64,000 nucleotides of DNA from a virus. The stretch covers positions 51,585-115,584 of the IMG/VR virus record IMGVR_UViG_3300025057_000003. One strand, written 5' to 3'. Below the pieces are notes generated by a model that ran no database searches, was not told the origin of the DNA, and saw only the letters and a program-made list of their open reading frames with translations. Within the stretch, counting starts at the first letter, position 1. Each line of letters starts with the position of its first letter. Made by a program: the position numbers and the translations under genes. Of the stretch, positions 3,101 through 59,731 are shown one piece after another.

Positions 3101-6100
3101 GATAGAGCTCTTAGAGTAATGACTGATCCAGCATATCTAGATGATTTGCTTACAGCTGGTAAGTTATATTTTAAATTTGCTTATGAAAATAGAAAGGCTT
3201 TATTTAGAGAGGCTATTGAAAAATTTATTAATAAGCAAGAGATAAACCAACTCTTAAATGCACTTGCAGATTTAGGTGTATATCCAGATATGGATAGTAC
3301 AATACTATTTTCACAAACAGGAGATCCAAAAGATCTAGGGTCATTTTATAATGCTGAAGGTATAGTAAATAAAGTAGATGATCCAGAGCTATATGAAAAG
3401 ATTGAAAATGCAATTGATATATATAGACAAACTGCAACAGATGCATTAAAAAAAGCTGCAGAAAAAGCCAAGAAAGAAGCTGAAGAAGAAGCTAAAGCTA
3501 GAACTGCAGAAAAAGCATCAAGTAGTGTTGATCAAATATTAGCAGAAGAAGGTGTAGATGCACCCGAGTCTAAGATTATAGGTAAAACAAAAGAAGAATC
3601 CCCTGTATTAGATCAAACTCTGCAAAGATTGTTTTCTGAAATGAAGGCTTTAGGTCTTAAAAAAGGCTTTACTATAAATCCATCTTGGGAAAAATTTCTT
3701 GAAAGTGATTTAGCCAAAGAGCATATAACTGCTTATAATGGTCTTAAAAAACTTTGGTATCAAACTCTTACAGCCTTACCGGAAGAAGAGAGAATGAATA
3801 GATTTAATAAAGACATAGGATTTATTGATTGGTTAAAGCTTCAAGGCACTAATGATCTTGTACAAAAAGTTTTAGCAGAAAGTGCTATTGGTGTTGGTGC
3901 TATAAGAATTCAAGCTTTTATACCAGAAGTAGAAGCTGAAATTAGGTCAGATGAAAAAAGAGAAGTAGATTCAAAAACTAGTGACTCTATCAATATTCAG
4001 ACTAGATTAATTTTTGATCATTCTACAGGAGAACAAACAACAATATTTATTCTTACGGATAAAAACAATAATATAATAGATGAAGAAATTTATACATCAG
4101 TAGGTATAGATCCAATAAGAGCTAATGCTGGATTCCGTACAAGGAAAGAAGCCAATGATGCAATAAAGCTAATGGCTAATTTAGTTCCTGTAACTGCAAG
4201 CTTTACTTTTGATGGTCAGACTTTAACCTATGCTGATGTTGTAGAAGATATAAATACTAAAAAGAAATATGTTATTATATCAGATGCAAATACAGTTGAC
4301 AGGTATGGTAATCTTCTATTAATGAAAATAGAAGATATAGGTAAACTTAATCCCAAACAAGCAATAGCCAAAGCAGTTAAAAGCAAGGAGTTAAATTTAT
4401 CTGAAGGTGATTTTCAGAAAAGATTTGCAACGGAACAATTGAATGCTGGCATAGCTTCTTTACCTGCAAATGTTACTAAATTAAACGTAAGAGAAGCTAC
4501 AAGATTAATTCCTCATAGAACTAACTTTGATACAAACTTCCCTGAAAATGAAGAGCTTGCTAGAAGACGTTATGATTTTATAATTAAAAATCTTACACCA
4601 GAGCAGTTAAAACAATTAAAAGTTAAAGTAAGAGTAAGACCTGATGGTGGGAAAGATATAGGTTATGTTAAGTTTGAAGATAAGGCAGCAAATCCATTTA
4701 TTAAAAAAACTAGAGCTCCTTATGATATAGAGATAATAGTTCCTGATGAGATACTTTCACCTATACTTGAAAAATTACCAAAAGAAATTAAAAAACCTGA
4801 AGGTAATGCATTAGGTTATATACCTAACGGTAACGTTGTACTTTTGGATAGAACTAATGGTACTGTTATAAATCCTTTGAGTATTACAGCAGATCAAGTA
4901 AAGGATTTATTTGATATTACCGGAAGCAGCAAAGAACAAGCTGCTGAAGATATTAAGCAAAATTTTGCAATTCAGTTTACAATTATGAACTCAATTGCAG
5001 AAAAGCTAGGAGATTCTGCAGAAATGGAAATGAGCCTTGAGGATATAGGAGGTGTTAATTTCTTTAGTACTCCAGGAGCAATGTTATTTGATGGGATAGA
5101 CAAACCTGTAAATGATTTAAATATTAGAACGGTTGACGGTCTAACTATTATATTAGAAAATACTAAGCTAAAGAATGGCAAGGTAGCTACTAGATTAATA
5201 CATAATGGTGAACGCGGTGAGGGTCCAACACTTCAGAGAAAGATTAAAAATGAAATGGATGCTCAAAATCCTAATTTATATGAGGGAGCTACAGGAACGT
5301 CTAGATATACAATGGTTGTAAAAAGTGCTTCAGGAGTATATTCTTACTTTCCAGTTAAAACACCACCATTATCCGATGAGTCTTTGCAAACTATAGCTGA
5401 CACTCTTATAAAAAGATCTGTAGAAACAGCCAAAGAAAACTTTACTTTAGAAGGCAAGGGAAAAACACAAAAGACAAAACTTAAAAATCTACAATATAAT
5501 AGTACGTTTAATGCAGACTTAAATTCTAATGAGTCACAAGATATTCCTAAATTCTATATTGCAGGTAAACCCGGATATACTTTTGAATTAGCTGTAACAG
5601 CAAATGGATCTGTATCAATTAAAGTTTATGATAGAAAATTACAACAATCTCAATATGTAGGACTTTCTGCAGAAGACGTGGCTACATATGCCGAATCAGA
5701 AAACAAAGCAGATTTTATAAAAGCATTAATAACTAATTATAATGATTATCTATCTAATCTTGATCCTGAAAAAGTAGATACAAAAAAGAAAGCATTCTTT
5801 ACAAATCTTAAGAAAAATGGTGCATTAAAAGAGAATGCGCTTAAAGAATCTTTTGAAGAGCTTGCTCCAGCTGAAGAAATTTCTGATGCTGTAACAACAC
5901 AGGTTGGACCTAGTGTTAGAAAAAAGTCTGCCTTAGTTGCAAATATTAGTGGAGTAGATTCTCAGAATATAAAATCTACACCTATTATATCTAGAACAAC
6001 TAGTGGTGTATTTACACCAAGTGAAAGATTTACAGATGCCCAAGGTAAGCCAATACCTAAAGGGCCTGCTATGACTACATCAACTGAGTCATTAAATATA

Positions 6101-12100: not shown

Positions 12101-15100
12101 GAATACTATCTTAAGGATGGTGAGTTCTTTGAGTATAAAAACAACTTTGAAGACTATGTAAGATATATTAATAAAAAAGTTAAGAAGAAAGGAAGTACTT
12201 ATGCTGAAGCTGCAATGAAAGCTAAGAAAAGAAAAGGTAAACTTTTATCTGACGCAAAGTTTGAAGCAGCTAAAAAAAGAGGTTTTGATGTTCAGGCAAT
12301 TCATGCTTTAAGAATATTAAACCTTCCTTTAACTAAACCAGAATACAATAAATATGTAGAAACAACAGGAAGAGCTCCTTTTGCGGCAGGGTATAATAAT
12401 GAAATATTAGATGTTAAGTTTAGGCTTATGGGTCATGATGGTGTAACAACTTCTGCAGATGGAAGTACGCCTATTTCATATGAAGCAGCGAATCTTTTAC
12501 CATTAACTAACCCTAAAGATAGAACTGGCGTTTGGGAAATGATACAGACTGAAATGCCTGAGTTAGCTGAAACATTAGCTGAAGACAATTTAGATATAAA
12601 TAATTTACGTGGTAAGGGTATATCATTTGGAAATAATAAAGAGGGAGCCAAATCTATTGGTGCTGCTGTACTACCAAATTTGTATCTAAGTTTAATGCAA
12701 GAGGTAGATATAAGATTAGCTAAAGGTAGAGGCTATGAATTAAACTTGGGTGGTCAAGTATATGATGGTTTTTATAATTATGATCCAATAAAAAAACAGG
12801 CTAGAACTAGAGAATTACTAGAAGATGGATCAGAAGGTTTTAGAAAACAATATATTATATCTGCTTTGATTACAGCTATGACCGATAACGCCAAAGAAAG
12901 ACTTGCAAAAAAATTAGGTCTTAGTCAAAATGGTTTAGGTATTGTAACTGCTATGACAGCAATGGGTGTTCCAATTAAAACATCAATAGGAATGATGAAT
13001 CATCCTATAATAAGAAGAGCATATGAATTAGAAAAAAGAGCTCCTGAATTTGAATTTGATGTTAAAGAACATATTGAAGAAAAAATAACAAGCTTAAAAC
13101 TTGCCGGTAATCAATATGAATTATTTGAAGATGATGTTTCTGTTGGTGTAAATCAAGATAATCTAATAAAAGCTGTTAATGAACCAATGCTTTCATTTAG
13201 AAATGATGGAGAGTTGGAGCAAAAGTTAGATAACTTAGAAGAGTTTGAATTAGAAGATATAGGAAATAAAATGCTATTAGATATAGCAATATTAGAAGAG
13301 TTCCTAAAGGCATATGATATTGCATCATTCTTAAGACCAGTTGGAGATTTATTAAATTTATCAAAAGGTTTTGGTGTAGATACAGCTTCTATTGCTAAAG
13401 TTAAAAAAGCAAGACAAAAATTAAAGCTTGATTTAACTGATCAAGAGATGGCAAAGTTACCTCCAAACGAGGTTCCAATGTTTGATCTTAGAAAAGTATT
13501 TAGCAGTGATAGATGGCAAACAACAATGCTAGATATATATGATGAGTTTGTTGATAGCTTACTACCGAAAGTATTTCTTAATGAAAGCAAACCTTTTAAT
13601 AATATATTTACATCTTTTCAAGATAACTTTAAATATCTAAACAAAGAAGATAGAGCTATGGTAGAAAAAGATCTTCTATCATATATAACTATTTCTGGTT
13701 ACATGCATTGGTTAGGTCAGAATAAATCTTCTGTTTTAGGCATGCCTACAAATAAATTAATTTATCCTGAAGAAGGTCAAACTGATATTGTAGACGTATA
13801 TGAAAAACTTAAAACTGTAAATGGAGAAAAGTATAATTATTTCTTAGATGGTTTTGTGAGACCTGAGAGAGCAACTGATCCTGGTAATAAAACAGGTATT
13901 AGCATGCTAACTTCAAATACATTAACAACTTTAAATGATTCACAAAGGATAGATGTACAAAATGGATTTAAAGAGTTGTTTGTAGATCCTGCAACTAGAT
14001 ATGGTGCAATGCAGGTGCTTAATTATATGATAGTTAAAGATGGTCTACAACCTTTATATAGAAGTATAATGAATGCAGTTGATCCAGAAATGTTTGCAGA
14101 ATATTTAGGGACATTACCAAATACATCAAATGTCTTTGCAACTATGAGTGAAGCTCAAATGCAAAGTAATTTTGGAATGTCATTTAAAGAGTTAAAGCTT
14201 AACTTCTTAAAAGAATATGGTCTTCATCCAAAAACTGCAAGATTATTAAAATCAGGATGGGCTCCTAAAGAACTTGTACTAAATTCTAAAGCATTCTTTA
14301 CACAGAGTTTTGGAGAGTTTAAAAAGTCCACTGTAGAAAATAATCCAGATAAGCTTTTTGTAATATTTGATAATCAAGCAGGTGTTGGATCTTCAAATAA
14401 CAAAGAGGTTAGAGACTATCCTAATGTAATAAGCATTAATATTAAAAAGAATGCCGGTAGTGCTGAAACAGATTTCTATAATAAAGAAGAAGAATCTGCA
14501 GCAATACAACATATGGAAGCTATGATGGCTTACTTAGAACAAGCAGCAGAAGGTTATGATTCTGTAGTAATACAAGATAGAATAGCTGAAGAAGAGTTAA
14601 AAGGTATATTAAAATACACTCCGAATTTTCATGAAAACTTATTAAGTAAATTAGATAAGTTAGTTGGTTATAAACCAAAAGGCTTGACAGATAAAGACAA
14701 GAAGTCTGAAAGAAAGGCTGTAAATATAGCGGCAAAAAAGAAATCTGTGTTTATAAATAATACCGTATCTGGTAGAGCTGTATTAACTGTAGATATAGAA
14801 AAAGGTTTGAGCGGATCAGTAAATCCTTCTTTTAAAAATACAGATGATTTGTTTGCTGAAAGAAAACTTGCAGACCCTAAAAAGAAAGGTTTTGAATTTA
14901 CAACAAGAAGTCAGCAAATAGCAACAGCTAAGACTATATTTCAAATTGATAGTATTCCAGAAGGAAAGTATGTTCAGTATGTTGCAACATTCCCACAGAC
15001 AATAAGAGTAAATGTAGAGGGTGAAGGAAACAAATATTTTCAGTTGGTTAGATATGCTGGACCTGCATATGGAGAAATAGGACCTGGATTGTCTAGAGGT

Positions 15101-46488: not shown

Positions 46489-46520
46489 AAAAAAAAATTG
46501 CCGGCACAAGACCGGCAATT
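46489..46520 (-). terminator. Intrinsic terminator
   Basis: ATTGCCGG-N7-CCGGCAAT followed by a U-tract that runs into a TAAATTTG (-7-like) box before the primase gene. Confidence 0.8.
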
Positions 46521-46532
46521 TCAAACCCTAAA

Positions 46533-46715
46533 CTATTCTACAGTTTCTATAGATAATGAATCAGCTTCTACAGCTGGTTCTTCAGCTGGTGCTTCTTCTA
46601 CACTAGAACTTTCTGAAACTTCTACTTTTTCAGCTGAATCTGTGCATTCTCCTTTGCTACAAGACACAAGAGTTAACGCACTTACCGCAATAAAACTTAA
46701 AAATAACTTTTTCAT
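46533..46715 (-). CDS. Small acidic lipoprotein
   Basis: MKK, a hydrophobic core and lipobox LVSC, then a Glu/Ser/Ala-rich tail. Confidence 0.75.
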   Translation of the reverse strand: MKKLFLSFIAVSALTLVSCSKGECTDSAEKVEVSESSSVEEAPAEEPAVEADSLSIETVE

Positions 46716-46742
46716 AATAAAAAAATTAAGGGATTAATAAAA

Positions 46743-46805
46743 AAGTAGAGGGGACACGCCAAACAGTCCCCCTGAATTAGTGATTTAGGCCTACTAAAAC
46801 TACTT
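46743..46805 (-). ncRNA. Three-way-junction RNA motif, copy A (unassigned)
   Basis: AAGUAG-UU-UUAGU[AGGCCUAAAUC]ACUAA-UUCA-GGGGGAC[UGUUUGGCGU]GUCCCCU-CUACUU; homologous to 55444-55507 with compensatory changes. Confidence 0.7.
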
Positions 46806-46853
46806 GCTTGTTATGTTTTACATTAAAACACCCGCGCACGCAGGAAAAAAAAT

Positions 46854-47519
46854 TTATAGATCAAAGTCATCCCCTGTATTAGAACTAGCAGGTTCAAAAC
46901 TTGATGTAGTTTGAGTTTTCTTTAACTCTTTTACATGATCTTCTTTAGAAAACTTATATAATTTTGAATTTTCTACATCCAAAGCTTCTAATGAAACTCC
47001 GTCTTTAGAATTTCTTGGTAAGAATAAGTCATAGTTAATATAACCTTCCTTATTTTCCCACTCTCTACCGCCAACACATGCATTTATGAATGTATCTCCA
47101 GATAAAACGGAATCTGCAGATTTCATAAATTGTTCAATAGTGTCAGCTTCAATCATATCTAAGTCATCACGCTTATTTAATACTTCAGATAAATAAATCA
47201 TAGATTTAAGAACTTCTGTATCTCTTTTTACTTCTCTACCACTTGGTAAAGTAGCATCTTTAAACGGATATGGACTTAATCTAATCCTACCAACTTGACC
47301 TTCATATCTAGGCCCATTTGCATCATTAGGGTCTATAAGAAAACCCTCAAACTCTCCGCCTACTGGCTCTGATTCTACATGCAATACTACATTATATGCA
47401 TCCTTATCATAAGGTGTTTGATCAAATGTGATGCTATTAATTTTTACTTTCTGATTACCTACTCCGATAACAGGTCTTGCTTTGCCTGAACCGGCACTCA
47501 TGTCTTTTGTACTTAACAT
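46854..47519 (-). CDS. Single-stranded DNA-binding protein (putative)
   Basis: Beta-rich with an acidic C-terminus (GDDFDL); lies between the Sak4-like ATPase and the primase. Confidence 0.65.
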   Translation of the reverse strand: MLSTKDMSAGSGKARPVIGVGNQKVKINSITFDQTPYDKDAYNVVLHVESEPVGGEFEGFLIDPNDANGPRYEGQVGRIRLSPYPFKDATLPSGREVKRDTEVLKSMIYLSEVLNKRDDLDMIEADTIEQFMKSADSVLSGDTFINACVGGREWENKEGYINYDLFLPRNSKDGVSLEALDVENSKLYKFSKEDHVKELKKTQTTSSFEPASSNTGDDFDL

Positions 47520-54940: not shown

Positions 54941-55162
54941 CTATTTAAATCTTACAGTGTTATCATCTATTTTAATAAATTCATATCCACATTTTGTACA
55001 TGATAGATCTACTGAACTATATTGAACCAGTTTATCTTTCATACAATTTGGACATAATATATTTGTGGGTGATGTAACATCATTTATTTCACGCATGTAT
55101 TCTGTATACTTTTCTGGATTTTGTTCCAGTTGTTGCATGAAAAGTTCTTTCATTCTTCCCAT
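54941..55162 (-). CDS. Small Zn-ribbon protein
   Basis: MGRMKELFM N-terminus; CPNC...CTKCG. Confidence 0.7.
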   Translation of the reverse strand: MGRMKELFMQQLEQNPEKYTEYMREINDVTSPTNILCPNCMKDKLVQYSSVDLSCTKCGYEFIKIDDNTVRFK

Positions 55163-55428
55163 TATTCTATTTCTGCATTTAATTTATGCACTAACAATTG
55201 TGCTTTAATAGGTATTAAATCTAAAAGGTCACCTGTTTTAACTGAGCATTTACCATTATTGTGTACAATATTAGCACACTGCTCTGCTTGTATAGGTGTA
55301 TGATCACAATACAACACAAGACATGTTATAACATGTTCAAATGTGTTGACATCATCATTATATAAAATGATAGATTTCTTATCACTCAATGCACTCTTAA
55401 GATTTTCTTCTAATTCTTTTACATTCAT
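55162..55428 (-). CDS. clpS: ATP-dependent Clp protease adaptor ClpS
   Basis: IILYNDDVNTFEHVI...AEQCANIVHNNGKCSVKTG. Confidence 0.92.
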   Translation of the reverse strand: MNVKELEENLKSALSDKKSIILYNDDVNTFEHVITCLVLYCDHTPIQAEQCANIVHNNGKCSVKTGDLLDLIPIKAQLLVHKLNAEIE

Positions 55429-55443
55429 AATAATTAAGAATTT

Positions 55444-55507
55444 GCGGGGGAAAACTTGCCTTACAGTCTCCCCTATTTATTCAGTGATCTGGCCTACTGA
55501 AACCCGC
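55444..55507 (-). ncRNA. Three-way-junction RNA motif, copy B (unassigned)
   Basis: GCGGG-UU-UCAGU[AGGCCAGAUC]ACUGA-AUAAAUAG-GGGAGAC[UGUAAGGCAA]GUUUUCC-CCCGC. Confidence 0.7.
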
Positions 55508-55516
55508 TAATTCAAC

Positions 55517-56617
55517 TTAAGTATTTAAAGGATTAAAATATTGTATTTTACTCTGATCAAATGTTTTTAGTGCGTCTTCAACCCATTTCTCATCCTGAGT
55601 GCCTTTATAACATAATATATGACACACAGCTTGTTGATCTGGTGATAAACGTAGTAGTCTACCTATTCTTTGTGCACTTTTCCTATTATTACCATAAGCA
55701 TGCATAATAATACCTTGACGCAGATTAGGAATAGATATACCCTCACTGAGCTGTAATACACAAGATAGTTTATCAATTCTTCCATCACTAAATAATTCTA
55801 AGTTTTCTTCTGACTTTGAGTTCCCAGAATGGTAACTATGTTTACACATTCTATCTGCTTGAGCCTGCGTATTTGCAAATATAATACACTTACTACTTAT
55901 GTTGTTTAACATTCCTTTTAAGTATTCTTCTTTAGTCTTATATTCCATTAAACCACGCATTCTCATAATTGCAGCCATTTGTTGCTGCTTTGCACTTAGG
56001 GCATCTCTACAACGGTTAGTTAAATAACCATAGTCTAGTGCTTCTGATGTATACCATACACCCCCATTTTTGGATTTCTTTGCTAAATCTTTAATTTTAG
56101 ATAATTCCAGTTGATGAATAATTATTTTATAATCATTTAAGATATTGCTATCTGTAGCTTCATCTACGGAAAACTCAAATATAATAGGGCAGTATTTATT
56201 TACCATTTTATATTTAACTGAAGATTTTCTTGCTGGTGGAGTACCAGTTAAACCTAGTATTTTACCATTAAACTGATCTAAAAACTCTTCATGAGACTCT
56301 AATAAACTATGACATTCATCTAGATAGACTATATCATATTCTTTAGGATCTTGTTTATTAAGAGATAAATAAGTTGTAAATGTAAAATGACTTTCTAATG
56401 CAGTTAATTCCATCTTCTCAAGCTCATCTAACCATGCATCTTTAACTGATAATTTTGGTATAACAACCAAAGCCCGTATAAAGGAGTTATAATTTTTCTG
56501 GAAATGCTGTATAGCAATTCTAGTTTTACCAACTCCCATTGAAATCCCTAAGCCACAGCGTTTGTGACTTAGGGTTTTCTCTAAAGCTTCCTGTTGTACT
56601 TTTTCTCTATTTGACAT
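55517..56617 (-). CDS. Superfamily 2 (DExH) helicase
   Basis: MGVGKT, LDECH, LTGTP, EGISIP and QRIGRLLR motifs. Likely start at ATG 56617. Confidence 0.9.
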   Translation of the reverse strand: MSNREKVQQEALEKTLSHKRCGLGISMGVGKTRIAIQHFQKNYNSFIRALVVIPKLSVKDAWLDELEKMELTALESHFTFTTYLSLNKQDPKEYDIVYLDECHSLLESHEEFLDQFNGKILGLTGTPPARKSSVKYKMVNKYCPIIFEFSVDEATDSNILNDYKIIIHQLELSKIKDLAKKSKNGGVWYTSEALDYGYLTNRCRDALSAKQQQMAAIMRMRGLMEYKTKEEYLKGMLNNISSKCIIFANTQAQADRMCKHSYHSGNSKSEENLELFSDGRIDKLSCVLQLSEGISIPNLRQGIIMHAYGNNRKSAQRIGRLLRLSPDQQAVCHILCYKGTQDEKWVEDALKTFDQSKIQYFNPLNT

Positions 56618-57314
56618 AATATTTAAAATCATAATATGCATTGTACTCAAAAGTACAATCTTTTTGCATCTTTTTGATCATATCATCTGTAAGCCTATAT
56701 GCTTCAGTTGGAGCATAATAGCTTGCAAAATTTTCCGCTTGTGGGCCAGCTCCAATATTATGTATAACCAAATACTCATTAGTACCTTCTATACGTATAT
56801 TGCTTACTATTCCCGTGTGTCCGGCACCAATTTGATCCCAGAATAAAATATCACCAGGTTTATATTTACCATTTGCTGGTATCTTTGCACCTAGACCTGT
56901 AAGATAGGTCTGGATATTTTGAGTTCTTCTATGATCAATATTTCTATCTATAGTTTTTGTACGATATCTTTTATTATAATCAGATAACCTTAATTTCATA
57001 TCTTCATGAATTAATTCTTGTAAATCAATATCAATACATCTTAAAGCTCTGATTACAACATCAGTACAAACACCTTGTTGGTATCCAGGATCACCTCCTG
57101 GATATCCAATCTTAACCCAACTTCCATCATAAACAGTATTATGTTTAGTTTGTAACTCAGCATGATAAGCAGCTTTTTCTAAACTTGGTATACTATCTGT
57201 TCTTATTAACTGATTTAAAGTATATCTAGTGGGTCTATCATTTTCATCTACATGTGAACATGCTACTGCATTAAATCCTATTACTATTAATGACAATAAA
57301 ATTAACTTTTTCAT
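56607..57314 (-). CDS. DUF1287 (YijF-like) NlpC/P60-type lipoprotein
   Basis: Lipobox AVAC; YPGGD...GVCTDVVIRALR, NIDHRR, GHTGIVS and IHNIGAG. Confidence 0.85.
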   Translation of the reverse strand: MKKLILLSLIVIGFNAVACSHVDENDRPTRYTLNQLIRTDSIPSLEKAAYHAELQTKHNTVYDGSWVKIGYPGGDPGYQQGVCTDVVIRALRCIDIDLQELIHEDMKLRLSDYNKRYRTKTIDRNIDHRRTQNIQTYLTGLGAKIPANGKYKPGDILFWDQIGAGHTGIVSNIRIEGTNEYLVIHNIGAGPQAENFASYYAPTEAYRLTDDMIKKMQKDCTFEYNAYYDFKYYVK

Positions 57315-59023: not shown

Positions 59024-59045
59024 AATATATTGGTTTTAATTAATA

Positions 59046-59089
59046 AAAAAAGGGGTCTTCCAGCTATGATTTTACTGGAAGATACCCCC
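59046..59089 (-). terminator. Intrinsic terminator preceded by a structured region
   Basis: GGGG-ta-TCTTCCAG...CTGGAAGA-CCCC followed by a U-tract. Confidence 0.75.
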
Positions 59090-59173
59090 GTCTGCTTAAT
59101 ATCACTGACTTTACAGTGCCCAATCTTTGGATACAATGCCATTAAGGACTTACATAATCACCTGTATTGGCTT

Positions 59174-59731
59174 TTATAATTCAAATGAATCTTCTTCTTC
59201 TAATTCATCCCCTTCTGCTTCAGCTACAACTTCTTCTTCTTCTTCTAATTCAGGTTCTGCCGTTTCTTCAGGAAATTCATCTTCAGCTATTGCTTCTGCA
59301 CCTGCACCTTCTGCATTTGCAGCTCTAATAGCATCACCATTTGCATGAGGAATCATGACATCCTCTTGTAAACCAGTTGCATCATAGAACGTAGTTCTAT
59401 AAATTGGCTCACCATCAGCAGTACAACAAATAATTCCCGTACTACCTGCAATTTTAAGATCACGATCTGGATCCTCTGAATTAAATGGTTCTGTAGATTC
59501 TTTAACTACAATTTTACCATCTAACGTCTGACCATTCTTGAATTTTAATTCTTTAAGGTCATCTATATTACCCAAAATAAGGGCGCTTCTTGTTTTTCTT
59601 TGAACCCATCCATTAGCACTATAGCTTACTGCATCTTGGGTTACTCTTACATATCCAATGTCTGGATTCTTTGACTGACGTATAACATTATTGTTATCAT
59701 CAGCAACAACTGTTACTTTGCTGTTTGACAT
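59174..59731 (-). CDS. Beta-rich protein with a long acidic tail (second SSB-like or DNA-mimic candidate)
   Basis: Beta-strand-rich core and a Glu-rich C-terminus ending in DSFEL. Confidence 0.55.
   Translation of the reverse strand: MSNSKVTVVADDNNNVIRQSKNPDIGYVRVTQDAVSYSANGWVQRKTRSALILGNIDDLKELKFKNGQTLDGKIVVKESTEPFNSEDPDRDLKIAGSTGIICCTADGEPIYRTTFYDATGLQEDVMIPHANGDAIRAANAEGAGAEAIAEDEFPEETAEPELEEEEEVVAEAEGDELEEEDSFEL

Follow-up and report, generated by a model that had tools for sequence, protein, structure and literature searches.

A branched RNA in two gene gaps of the window

The viral DNA considered here, called the window throughout, comprises 64,000 nucleotides (nt) of the IMG/VR record IMGVR_UViG_3300025057_000003 (bases 51585-115584 of a 115.6-kb genome that is rated complete), and its minus strand carries, in two gaps between genes, a compact RNA element in which three helices meet at a junction. 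One copy (copy A) is located between the genes for an SSB-like protein and a small predicted lipoprotein, and the other (copy B) is located between the genes for a superfamily 2 (SF2) helicase and a ClpS-like adaptor (Table 1). A preliminary description of this DNA had proposed that both copies share a fold of three paired segments (P1, P2 and P3), two of which end in conserved loops (L2 and L3). When the window was re-read, the sequence and coordinates of the two copies (minus strand, 46805-46743 and 55507-55444) agreed with that description, and the shared fold was confirmed by RNAfold and by covariation across the family of related sequences presented below.

RNAfold returned the P1/P2/P3 three-way junction for each copy, with single-sequence z-scores of -0.9 (copy A) and -2.5 (copy B); these values are modest, so it is comparison rather than folding energy that supports the structure. 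There are exactly two occurrences of the motif AGTAGGCC(N0-3)ATCACT in the window and none in 100 shuffles, and a covariance model run across the whole genome found only copies A and B. The initial view of a two-copy motif is correct for this genome, but the family to which the copies belong extends to at least 32 distinct sequences in at least eight gene contexts.

The P1 helix of copy A runs directly into a U-rich tract, as was initially reported, and P1 and P3 together with this tract have the geometry of an intrinsic terminator (the automatic scanner that was used looks for the simple type and does not call branched stems). Copy B is without a U-tract and has an outer extension (P0), in which GAAUU (55509-55513) pairs with AAUUC (55438-55442) across a 1x1 internal loop. 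Because this outer helix is present, the closing stem of copy B runs from 3 nt after the helicase stop codon (55517-55519) to 9 nt before the ClpS AUG (55426-55428). In two other carriers of the element, L087 and L294, P0 is GAAUA/UAUUC, which is a compensatory change relative to copy B.

Table 1. Positions in the window of the two element copies, their parts and the adjoining genes
Feature	Position	Strand	Evidence or remarks
Copy A, three-way-junction RNA	46743-46805	-	covariance-model score 81.8 bits, RNAfold, alignment
Copy A, P1	46800-46805/46743-46748	-	AAGUAG/CUACUU
Copy A, joining segment J1/2	46798-46799	-	UU
Copy A, P2	46793-46797/46777-46781	-	
Copy A, L2	46782-46792	-	A bulge, inner pairs G-C and G.U, loop CCUAAA
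Copy A, joining segment J2/3	46773-46776	-	
Copy A, P3	46766-46772/46749-46755	-	
Copy A, L3	46756-46765	-	inner pairs U-G and G-C, loop UUUGG, U bulge
U-rich tract	46733-46742	-	UUUUAUUAAU (UUUUAUU), directly after P1 of copy A
Small terminator-like hairpin	46831-46844	-	CCUGCG..CGCGGG + UGUUUU; ends the 221-aa gene, 25 nt upstream of copy A
Upstream gene of copy A, SSB-like 221-aa protein	46854-47519	-	predicted OB-fold type, acidic DDFDL C-terminus
Downstream gene of copy A, predicted 60-aa lipoprotein	46533-46715	-	signal peptide, LVSC lipobox read from sequence
Copy B, three-way-junction RNA	55444-55507	-	covariance-model score 70.5 bits, RNAfold, alignment
Copy B with outer extension P0	55438-55513	-	GAAUU/AAUUC, 1x1 internal loop
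Copy B, P1	55503-55507/55444-55447(8)	-	
Copy B, J1/2	55501-55502	-	
Copy B, P2	55496-55500/55481-55485	-	
Copy B, L2	55486-55495	-	
Copy B, J2/3	55474-55480	-	
Copy B, P3	55466-55473/55448-55455	-	
Copy B, L3	55456-55465	-	
Upstream gene of copy B, SF2 helicase	55517-56650	-	ResIII and Helicase_C domains
Downstream gene of copy B, ClpS-like adaptor	55162-55428	-	PF02617, E 1.7e-14
aa, amino acids

A covarying RNA family absent from Rfam 15

Relatives of the two copies were collected by pattern scans of IMG/VR and of metagenome contigs and were filtered by a covariance model, which yielded 32 distinct sequences (both copies plus 30 relatives). The first scan of IMG/VR used a 14-base pattern, and only 4 of its 118 matches were real, the rest being mostly chance. 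Weak model hits in L267, L161 and L135 (14-19 bits) were not accepted as members, and a search of 130 related loci with the model revealed no diverged copies.

In the alignment of these 32 members, 94.4% of the cells in the three helices are standard pairs, both sides change in 15 of the 19 pairs, and the observed covariation score of 0.578 was reached by none of 500 shuffles. When the 3' partners were shifted, in slid controls, pairing fell to 35-55%. The P1 helix takes the forms AAGUAG, GCGG, AAACAU, AUGCAG, AUACAG, GAAAAG and CGGAG among others, the second pair of P2 is found as U-A, C-G, A-U or G-C, and P3 varies almost completely. There is a G-U pair at one position of P3 in 9 of the 32 members and at another in 5, which assigns the structure to RNA of the same sense as the flanking genes; the strand had previously been assigned from the G-U pairs of the two copies, with the same outcome. 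The accompanying claim that the stem differences between copies A and B are compensatory is borne out for the family as a whole, in which covariation is seen, but the P1 difference between these two copies is one between diverged paralogs at different junctions. Together, these comparisons confirm that the element is a real, compact (~63 nt), strand-specific phage RNA family with a covarying three-way junction.

The preliminary description had also called the two loops conserved, and the near-invariant core of the 32 sequences, AGU-A-GGCC(N1-4)AAUC-ACU plus C-UGUNNGGCRN-G, indeed contains them, with a total of ~25 fixed bases. Within these loops the stems can be extended past a one-base bulge, by a G-C and a G.U pair in L2 and by a U-R and a G-C pair in L3; P2 thereby consists of 5 base pairs (bp), a bulged A and 2 inner pairs, P3 consists of 6-8 bp and 2 inner pairs with a bulged base, and the true loops that are left are CC(N)AAA in L2 and UNNGG in L3. 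The sole change at position 9 of L3 is the G to A found in copy B, and it keeps the pairing with U1. The joining segments are not conserved, since J1/2 is 1-3 nt long (mostly UU), J2/3 is 3-9 nt long without a conserved base and J3/1 is 0-3 nt long. A close relative of the genome, L300 (WLWH01000018.1; 86% mean protein identity), carries both an A and a B copy (4584-4657 and 12130-12207, minus strand), and its A copy has the only change seen in the L2 bulge (AGUGGGCC).

The family is new and absent from Rfam 15. None of the models in that release matched at the gathering threshold over the whole window, the sequence around each copy, searched at E<=10, yielded nothing beyond chance hits (VrrA, microRNA and small nucleolar RNA models, 11-18 bits), and no published description of the motif was found in the literature. 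The novelty that was proposed at the outset therefore stands, and the search for relatives, which had been suggested along with it, produced further homologs as well as covariation. The initial statement that the element is not recognizable as a purine riboswitch, a hammerhead or a tRNA also agrees with the model scores, none of which matches. For example, the known small self-cleaving ribozymes (hammerhead, twister, twister-sister, pistol, hatchet and hepatitis delta virus-like) gave no Rfam hit even at E<=10 around the copies, and the junction of the element is unconserved. ARAGORN found no tRNA or transfer-messenger RNA (tmRNA) gene in the window, and a tRNA or tRNA-like RNA was rejected in the absence of an ARAGORN call or a tRNA-clan hit and because L3 is a 10-nt loop rather than a 7-nt T-loop. 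Models of T-loops or of known operators do not match either.

The element also appears to be restricted to phages. A strict pattern matched only three times in 185,579 prokaryote species genomes, and none of these matches scored with the model, so a host-derived or REP-like (repetitive extragenic palindromic) repeat was rejected despite the GTAGGCC heptamer that the element shares with E. coli REP. Among isolated phages, INPHARED contains no DNA nearly identical to that of this phage. The helicase next to copy B has relatives of 27-28% identity in isolated phages, which are mostly crAss-like phages of Flavobacterium, Cellulophaga and Bacteroides, so on sequence relationship the genome is that of an uncultured marine crAss-like phage.

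Gene contexts, portability and alternative modules

Members of the family typically occupy short gaps between genes on the same strand, where P1 starts 6-14 nt past the upstream stop codon and ends 10-28 nt ahead of the next AUG. The genes that flank these gaps are diverse. The A type follows an SSB-like gene and precedes a lipoprotein or primase gene, and the B type lies between a helicase and ClpS; other copies are found between an ATPase of 429 or 416 aa and an unknown protein of 346 or 374 aa, between an acidic-tailed protein of 171-176 aa and an unknown protein of 141-157 aa, and between a 250-aa and a 158-aa protein (L290). BLASTP detected no homology among the three acidic-tailed upstream proteins. 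In addition, there are copies in long non-coding stretches (L306 and L291), between tRNA-Met and tRNA-Lys (L281) and, in L276, within a tmRNA gene. All carriers are AT-rich (24-36% GC), and the element forms a local GC island in them. A U-tract follows the element in copy A and in about half of the family. The carriers L276, L281, L290 and L291 have no detectable protein similarity to the genome studied here.

The L276 copy illustrates how close the element can be to the end of another structured RNA. The segment L276:5180-5676 (minus strand) is a tmRNA gene of the permuted, two-piece type that is carried by a phage (RF04321, 48 bits; threshold, 47 bits), and the element is located directly after the 3' end of the acceptor piece, within the 280-nt segment that is excised. 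This intervening segment is unusually long (~280 nt) and begins with the element copy, and five tRNA genes are found 3.5 kb away. We take the permuted gene order as a hint that the host of this phage may be an alphaproteobacterium or a cyanobacterium.

Contexts of this kind raise the question of whether the element is a small self-cleaving ribozyme of a new class, whose docked loops would be the active site and which would cut polycistronic RNAs, or precursors of tRNA and tmRNA, in its own sequence or close by. The known small ribozymes (hammerhead, twister, pistol and hatchet) are likewise small, have invariant unpaired bases, are at home in phages, are sporadic in occurrence and lie near tRNA-like genes, so the element resembles them in each of these respects. 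The position right after the tmRNA acceptor 3' end in L276 is where a cut would be needed, and in L289 the element stands in tandem behind another structured module. However, no Rfam ribozyme model matches, the junction, which is the core site of three-way-junction ribozymes, is unconserved, the conserved bases look like a known loop-loop contact that is purely structural, and a cut inside a terminal loop would leave pieces that are still held together by the helices. By analogy, then, self-cleavage could be envisaged, but we regard it as very unlikely.

The same contexts could suggest that the element is released as a stable small RNA and works in trans, perhaps as a decoy that engages a defence nuclease or an RNA-binding factor of the host; the T4 tRNA cluster, which encodes small stable RNAs, offers a comparison. 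Copies located among tRNA genes, in a tmRNA gene or in extended non-coding DNA remote from open reading frames (L281, L276, L306 and L291) would suit such an RNA, as would the bracketing of copy A by an upstream terminator and by its own stem and U-tract, and the limitation of the element to phages. Against this, most copies are wedged into gaps, 3-10 nt behind a stop codon, that have no room for a promoter, a scan for sigma-70-type promoters detected none, no target or mimicry partner could be identified, and no host RNA family is resembled, all of which makes a decoy a highly doubtful proposition. The promoter scan found no sigma-70-like promoters near copy A and only a chance-level number near copy B; promoters of Bacteroidota and of phage RNA polymerases fall outside the scope of the scanner.

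The element is sporadic and portable. Only 1 of 14 near-complete relatives of the genome has a clear copy (one further, weak hit, with E 0.009, was not accepted), and behind the SSB-like gene the element is kept only in relatives with an SSB-like protein that is >=86% identical. In ~60 other relatives, the junction between the SSB-like and primase genes contains mostly a plain GC hairpin with a U-tract, or else one of three branched modules. The element takes the exact place of the relatives' hairpin at this junction and is again followed by a U-tract, so that at least four modules are interchangeable there. Portability is also evident from a comparison of the A-type unit of the window with the unit behind the ATPase gene of L293, as the two are 91% identical, P1 included, and have unrelated flanks. 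One possibility is that P1 belongs to the site and that the interior was inserted into the loop of a pre-existing hairpin. This was suggested by L188, in which one arm of the hairpin (AGCAAGCAG) nearly equals the window's AGCAAGUAG, and by positions 59100-59175 of the window, but the P1 that the A-type and L293 units share at different junctions speaks against it.

The alternative modules at this junction are themselves structured RNAs. One of them, of ~80 nt, is found in L187 (3685-3765, plus strand), L200, L202 and L289; it is closed by AAGGCA/UGCCUU followed by a U-tract, contains the inner hairpins CACGU/ACGUG, GGUU/AACC and GGAG/CCUC, has no Rfam match and is unrelated to the three-way-junction element. 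Another, of ~100 nt, is found in L189, L191, L221 and L255 (for example, L189:3700-3830), is closed by AAGAUG/CAUCUU followed by a U-tract and reads AAGGCAGUCC ... AAGGCAGGGUGGC ... CCCUGCC; L195 seems to carry only its last hairpin. A larger branched module fills the 133-nt gap after the SSB-like gene in L210, L211 and L213, where a closing stem, CUAGUAG/CUACU(U), surrounds GGGGAGCUG...CAGCUCCC. This junction is thus a hot spot in marine crAss-like phages, in which plain terminator hairpins and at least four branched RNA modules are swapped, and these phages seem to assemble their gene boundaries from folded RNA parts that can be exchanged.

Given this mobility, the element could be a selfish or recombination-promoting cassette joint that spreads by homology or as a safe insertion point and has little function of its own for the phage. 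The promoter-early stem-loops (PeSLs) of T4-type phages have been described as mobile regulatory cassettes of a promoter and a stem-loop (Arbiol et al. 2010; PMC2839356), and the element resembles them in being a short, conserved intergenic unit with a terminator-type stem-loop that is found among the accessory genes of variable regions, with its junction differing from one related phage to another. Its sporadic presence, the clean insertions and deletions at junctions, the 91% identical unit at different junctions, the proximity to morons such as ClpS and the lipoprotein, and the alternation of several other modules at the same spot are all consistent with such a cassette. However, the stems change in a compensatory manner while the loops are fixed, which argues for selection on RNA structure and not on DNA homology. 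PeSLs are conserved as DNA and combine a strong sigma-70 promoter with a simple hairpin in many copies per genome, whereas the element is without a detected promoter (there is no sigma-70-type promoter beside copy A), is branched, has invariant loops and is present in one or two copies per genome, far below the number of PeSLs or of REP-type or miniature inverted-repeat transposable element-type repeats. Transposase-type ends and target duplications were not seen. Of the features that define a PeSL-type cassette, it is portability alone that the element shares, so a role as a mere cassette joint seems unlikely.

The genes next to the two copies belong, in part, to the variable fraction of these genomes. 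The 221-aa protein encoded ahead of copy A has no Pfam, PHROG or PDB sequence hit, but its AlphaFold model (predicted local distance difference test score, pLDDT, 74) matches almost only SSB and OB-fold chains, weakly (best E 5e-3), and the protein has an acidic DDFDL tip. The earlier naming of this gene as SSB is therefore plausible, not proven. The small hairpin at the end of this gene covaries among close relatives. The lipoprotein gene, which lies after copy A as was first described and whose product has an LVSC lipobox, has its own strong terminator (46494-46522, 12 bp) and is a self-contained insert (46494-46715, minus strand) between the element and the primase gene; related contigs have different small lipoprotein genes or none at this site, and L278 lacks the gene, its element lying immediately ahead of that for the primase.

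Behind the helicase, relatives pack variable small genes tightly. The ClpS-like gene is one such accessory, present in only 3 of 15 near-complete relatives, and ClpS also follows the helicase without the element in G009, where its start overlaps the helicase stop codon (ATGA), and in L176, where the gap is 15 nt. Since ClpS occurs without the element, it was rejected as the element's partner. On the other side of the helicase, a DUF1287 protein (56607-57314, minus strand) matches CHAP weakly (E 1.3e-4), scoring 22.8 bits against a cut-off of 26 bits.

A candidate loop-loop lock and its possible functions

The loops of the element have a counterpart in a solved RNA, the purine riboswitch aptamer, of which B. 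subtilis xpt and V. vulnificus add are examples. In the xpt guanine aptamer of B. subtilis, L2 is GAUAUGG, followed by C, and L3 is CCGUAAA, followed by U (PMC4521916). The bases A33, U34, G37 and G38 of xpt L2 form two base quadruples with C60, C61, A65 and A66 of L3; these loop bases are strictly conserved for structural reasons, and the quadruples form without ligand and are stable outside the riboswitch (PMC1802621). The L2 core of the element, CCUAAAU on the 5' arm, is similar to xpt L3 (CCGUAAAU) minus one base, and its L3 core, most often UAUGGC on the 3' arm, is similar to the 3' part of xpt L2 (AUAUGGC) and two bases shorter. Thus, the GCC/GGC letters for which a kissing interaction had first been proposed may be part of a known tertiary lock that is mounted in the opposite order, and the likeness could reflect the re-use or the convergence of a structural module. 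If so, the L2-L3 lock of the purine riboswitch would be a reusable tertiary module that can be mounted in reverse on a three-way junction without a pocket, which bears on the origin of riboswitch scaffolds and on RNA design.

The element is not a purine riboswitch, even though both are three-way junctions with P2 and P3 of similar length, nearly the same loop letters and a P1 helix whose stability matters downstream. The loops sit on opposite arms in the two RNAs (that with CC is 5' in the element but 3' in xpt), the GG loop of the element is the shorter one, both of its arms have a one-base bulge below the loop, and its short or unconserved joining segments provide no ligand pocket. The junction bases of the purine pocket (U22, U47, U51 and C/U74) have no conserved equivalents in the junctions of the element. 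The Purine model (RF00167) finds nothing in the whole genome or at E<=10 around the copies, but scores in B. subtilis and L. lactis controls. Nor is the element, which has no link to purine genes, located in 5' leaders of purine metabolism or transport genes; what lies downstream is ClpS, a lipoprotein, a primase, unknown proteins or no gene. The failure of the model to score, the unconserved and length-variable junction and the neighbouring genes unrelated to purines together lead to this conclusion.

A more general sensor, such as a riboswitch or an ion or temperature switch, could still be imagined, in which the kiss or the junction would respond to a ligand, Mg2+ or temperature and would, through P1, tune termination (copy A) or the start of translation (copy B). 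The tuning-fork architecture and the loops shared with the purine aptamer would suit a sensor, and P1 is short and AU-rich, so that its formation could depend on the tertiary lock, and is followed by a U-tract in copy A or lies 9 nt from an AUG in copy B. However, no ligand pocket can be common to the family when no junction base is conserved and J2/3 ranges from 3 to 9 nt. What lies downstream is a set of unrelated genes (ClpS, lipoprotein, primase and unknowns) or, in tRNA and tmRNA regions, no gene, an expression platform based on alternative pairing is absent, and the purine model is silent in the genome but not in its B. subtilis control. A sensor is for these reasons a highly improbable function. 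Of the functions that had been listed in the preliminary description, an RNase-blocking or processing element fits the evidence best, whereas a metabolite riboswitch is disfavoured by the unconserved junction, the unrelated downstream genes and the copies in tRNA and tmRNA regions.

We tentatively favour the view that the element is a ligand-independent, tertiary-locked stem clamp that acts in cis as the apex of a terminator or as a protector of transcript ends. L2 and L3 would kiss through GG:CC and U:A contacts, as L2 and L3 do in the purine riboswitch, and this kiss would pack P2 against P3, pre-organize the junction and clamp the short, AU-rich closing helix (P1, or P0 plus P1 in copy B) without a ligand. 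The locked unit could then serve as a portable boundary element on polycistronic phage transcripts. Where a U-tract is present, as in copy A and about half of the family, it would provide the hairpin of an intrinsic terminator; elsewhere, as in copy B and in the tRNA and tmRNA contexts, it may be a mechanically stable cap that stops exonucleases, or a processing mark. Either would define and protect the RNAs on both sides, the upstream one at its 3' end and the downstream one at its 5' end, and could keep the AU-rich start region of the next gene unpaired, and the unit, P1 included, would move as a block between gene junctions and between phages. The short same-strand gaps and the replacement of a plain hairpin and U-tract at the SSB-like/primase junction point to such a boundary role.

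Known systems provide partial precedents for a stem clamp. The T7 RNase III sites (R1.1 and others) and plain hairpin and U-tract terminators are sense-strand structures in gaps that set and protect transcript ends. Like the element, such intercistronic hairpins lie in operon gaps and are few per genome, and plain hairpins occur at the SSB-like/primase junction of relatives; unlike the element, they are read by shape alone and have no conserved loops, whereas the ~25 fixed bases and putative tertiary lock of the element are common to unrelated phages. The exoribonuclease-resistant RNAs (xrRNAs) of flaviviruses and plant viruses are compact folds with a three-way junction or pseudoknot whose sole job is mechanical resistance and whose conserved bases serve the tertiary structure. 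A compact fold that resists nucleases mechanically might, by analogy, be what the element shares with them, but an xrRNA encircles its own 5' end in a ring and halts the eukaryotic enzyme Xrn1, no such ring is evident in the element, and the nucleases of bacteria are different.

Several observations weigh against a stem clamp. The pattern that found the members required the loops, so the invariance of the loops is partly a matter of ascertainment, and a scan in which the GG/CC positions were freed found no variants of these bases; because GG and CC never vary, the kiss rests on likeness to a solved RNA and not on covariation. With two bases fewer than xpt L2, the L3 of the element cannot make both quadruples as xpt does. 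Termination cannot be the common function, since no U-tract is present in copy B or in several further members, and plain GC hairpins suffice as terminators in the relatives, which leaves ~25 invariant bases that termination alone does not explain. Such conservation would equally fit a protein site or a catalytic core.

The first of these, a binding site (an operator or handle) for a specific protein or ribonucleoprotein that reads the shape and the two loops, is possible but doubtful. The loops would then be recognition surfaces rather than a self-contained lock, and the candidates for the partner include a phage translational repressor, an RNA chaperone, a host RNase (P, Z or E), the ribosome, and RNA polymerase in the manner of put-like antitermination. 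The ~25 near-invariant bases, across phages with unrelated genes, exceed what a nuclease barrier would appear to need, a location just upstream of start codons suits translational control, and copies beside tRNA-like 3' ends suit an enzyme of the RNase P or Z type; in addition, the coaxial stack of P1 and P3 (12-14 bp), with the second arm docked on it, is roughly the size of a tRNA. However, no phage protein co-occurs with the element (ClpS, the only nearby candidate, is also found without it), no tRNA, T-loop or known operator model matches, and the conserved bases are largely accounted for by a kiss of the purine type.

An autonomous RNA machine would be the most novel function for the element, and it seems to us unlikely. 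In this case the element would be the counterpart of xrRNAs in viruses of bacteria, or a new class of small ribozyme, namely a 63-nt RNA that uses a reversed purine kissing module to cut or cap phage transcripts and tRNA or tmRNA precursors without host factors. If true, this would explain why the element is shared among unrelated AT-rich marine phages, possibly of different host phyla.

Whatever its role, the element is a well-supported and very small addition to the few non-coding RNA families known from phages, and its size (63 nt, 19 pairs) makes it a good target for crystallography or nuclear magnetic resonance. If it blocks nucleases or cleaves itself, it would be a compact, host-independent insulator part for use in Bacteroidota and other bacteria.

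One further gap of the window may contain a decayed copy of the element or another module. This ~155-nt non-coding gap (59035-59175, minus strand) follows the gene for an acidic-tailed homolog of the protein encoded upstream of the element in L283. The alignment of a possible remnant at 59100-59175 with the element was unconvincing. At the start of the gap is AAUACAG...UUGUAU, an arm also found as P1 in the L283-type element, and a strong terminator, GGGGUAUCUUCCAG...CUGGAAGACCCC with U7, closes it.

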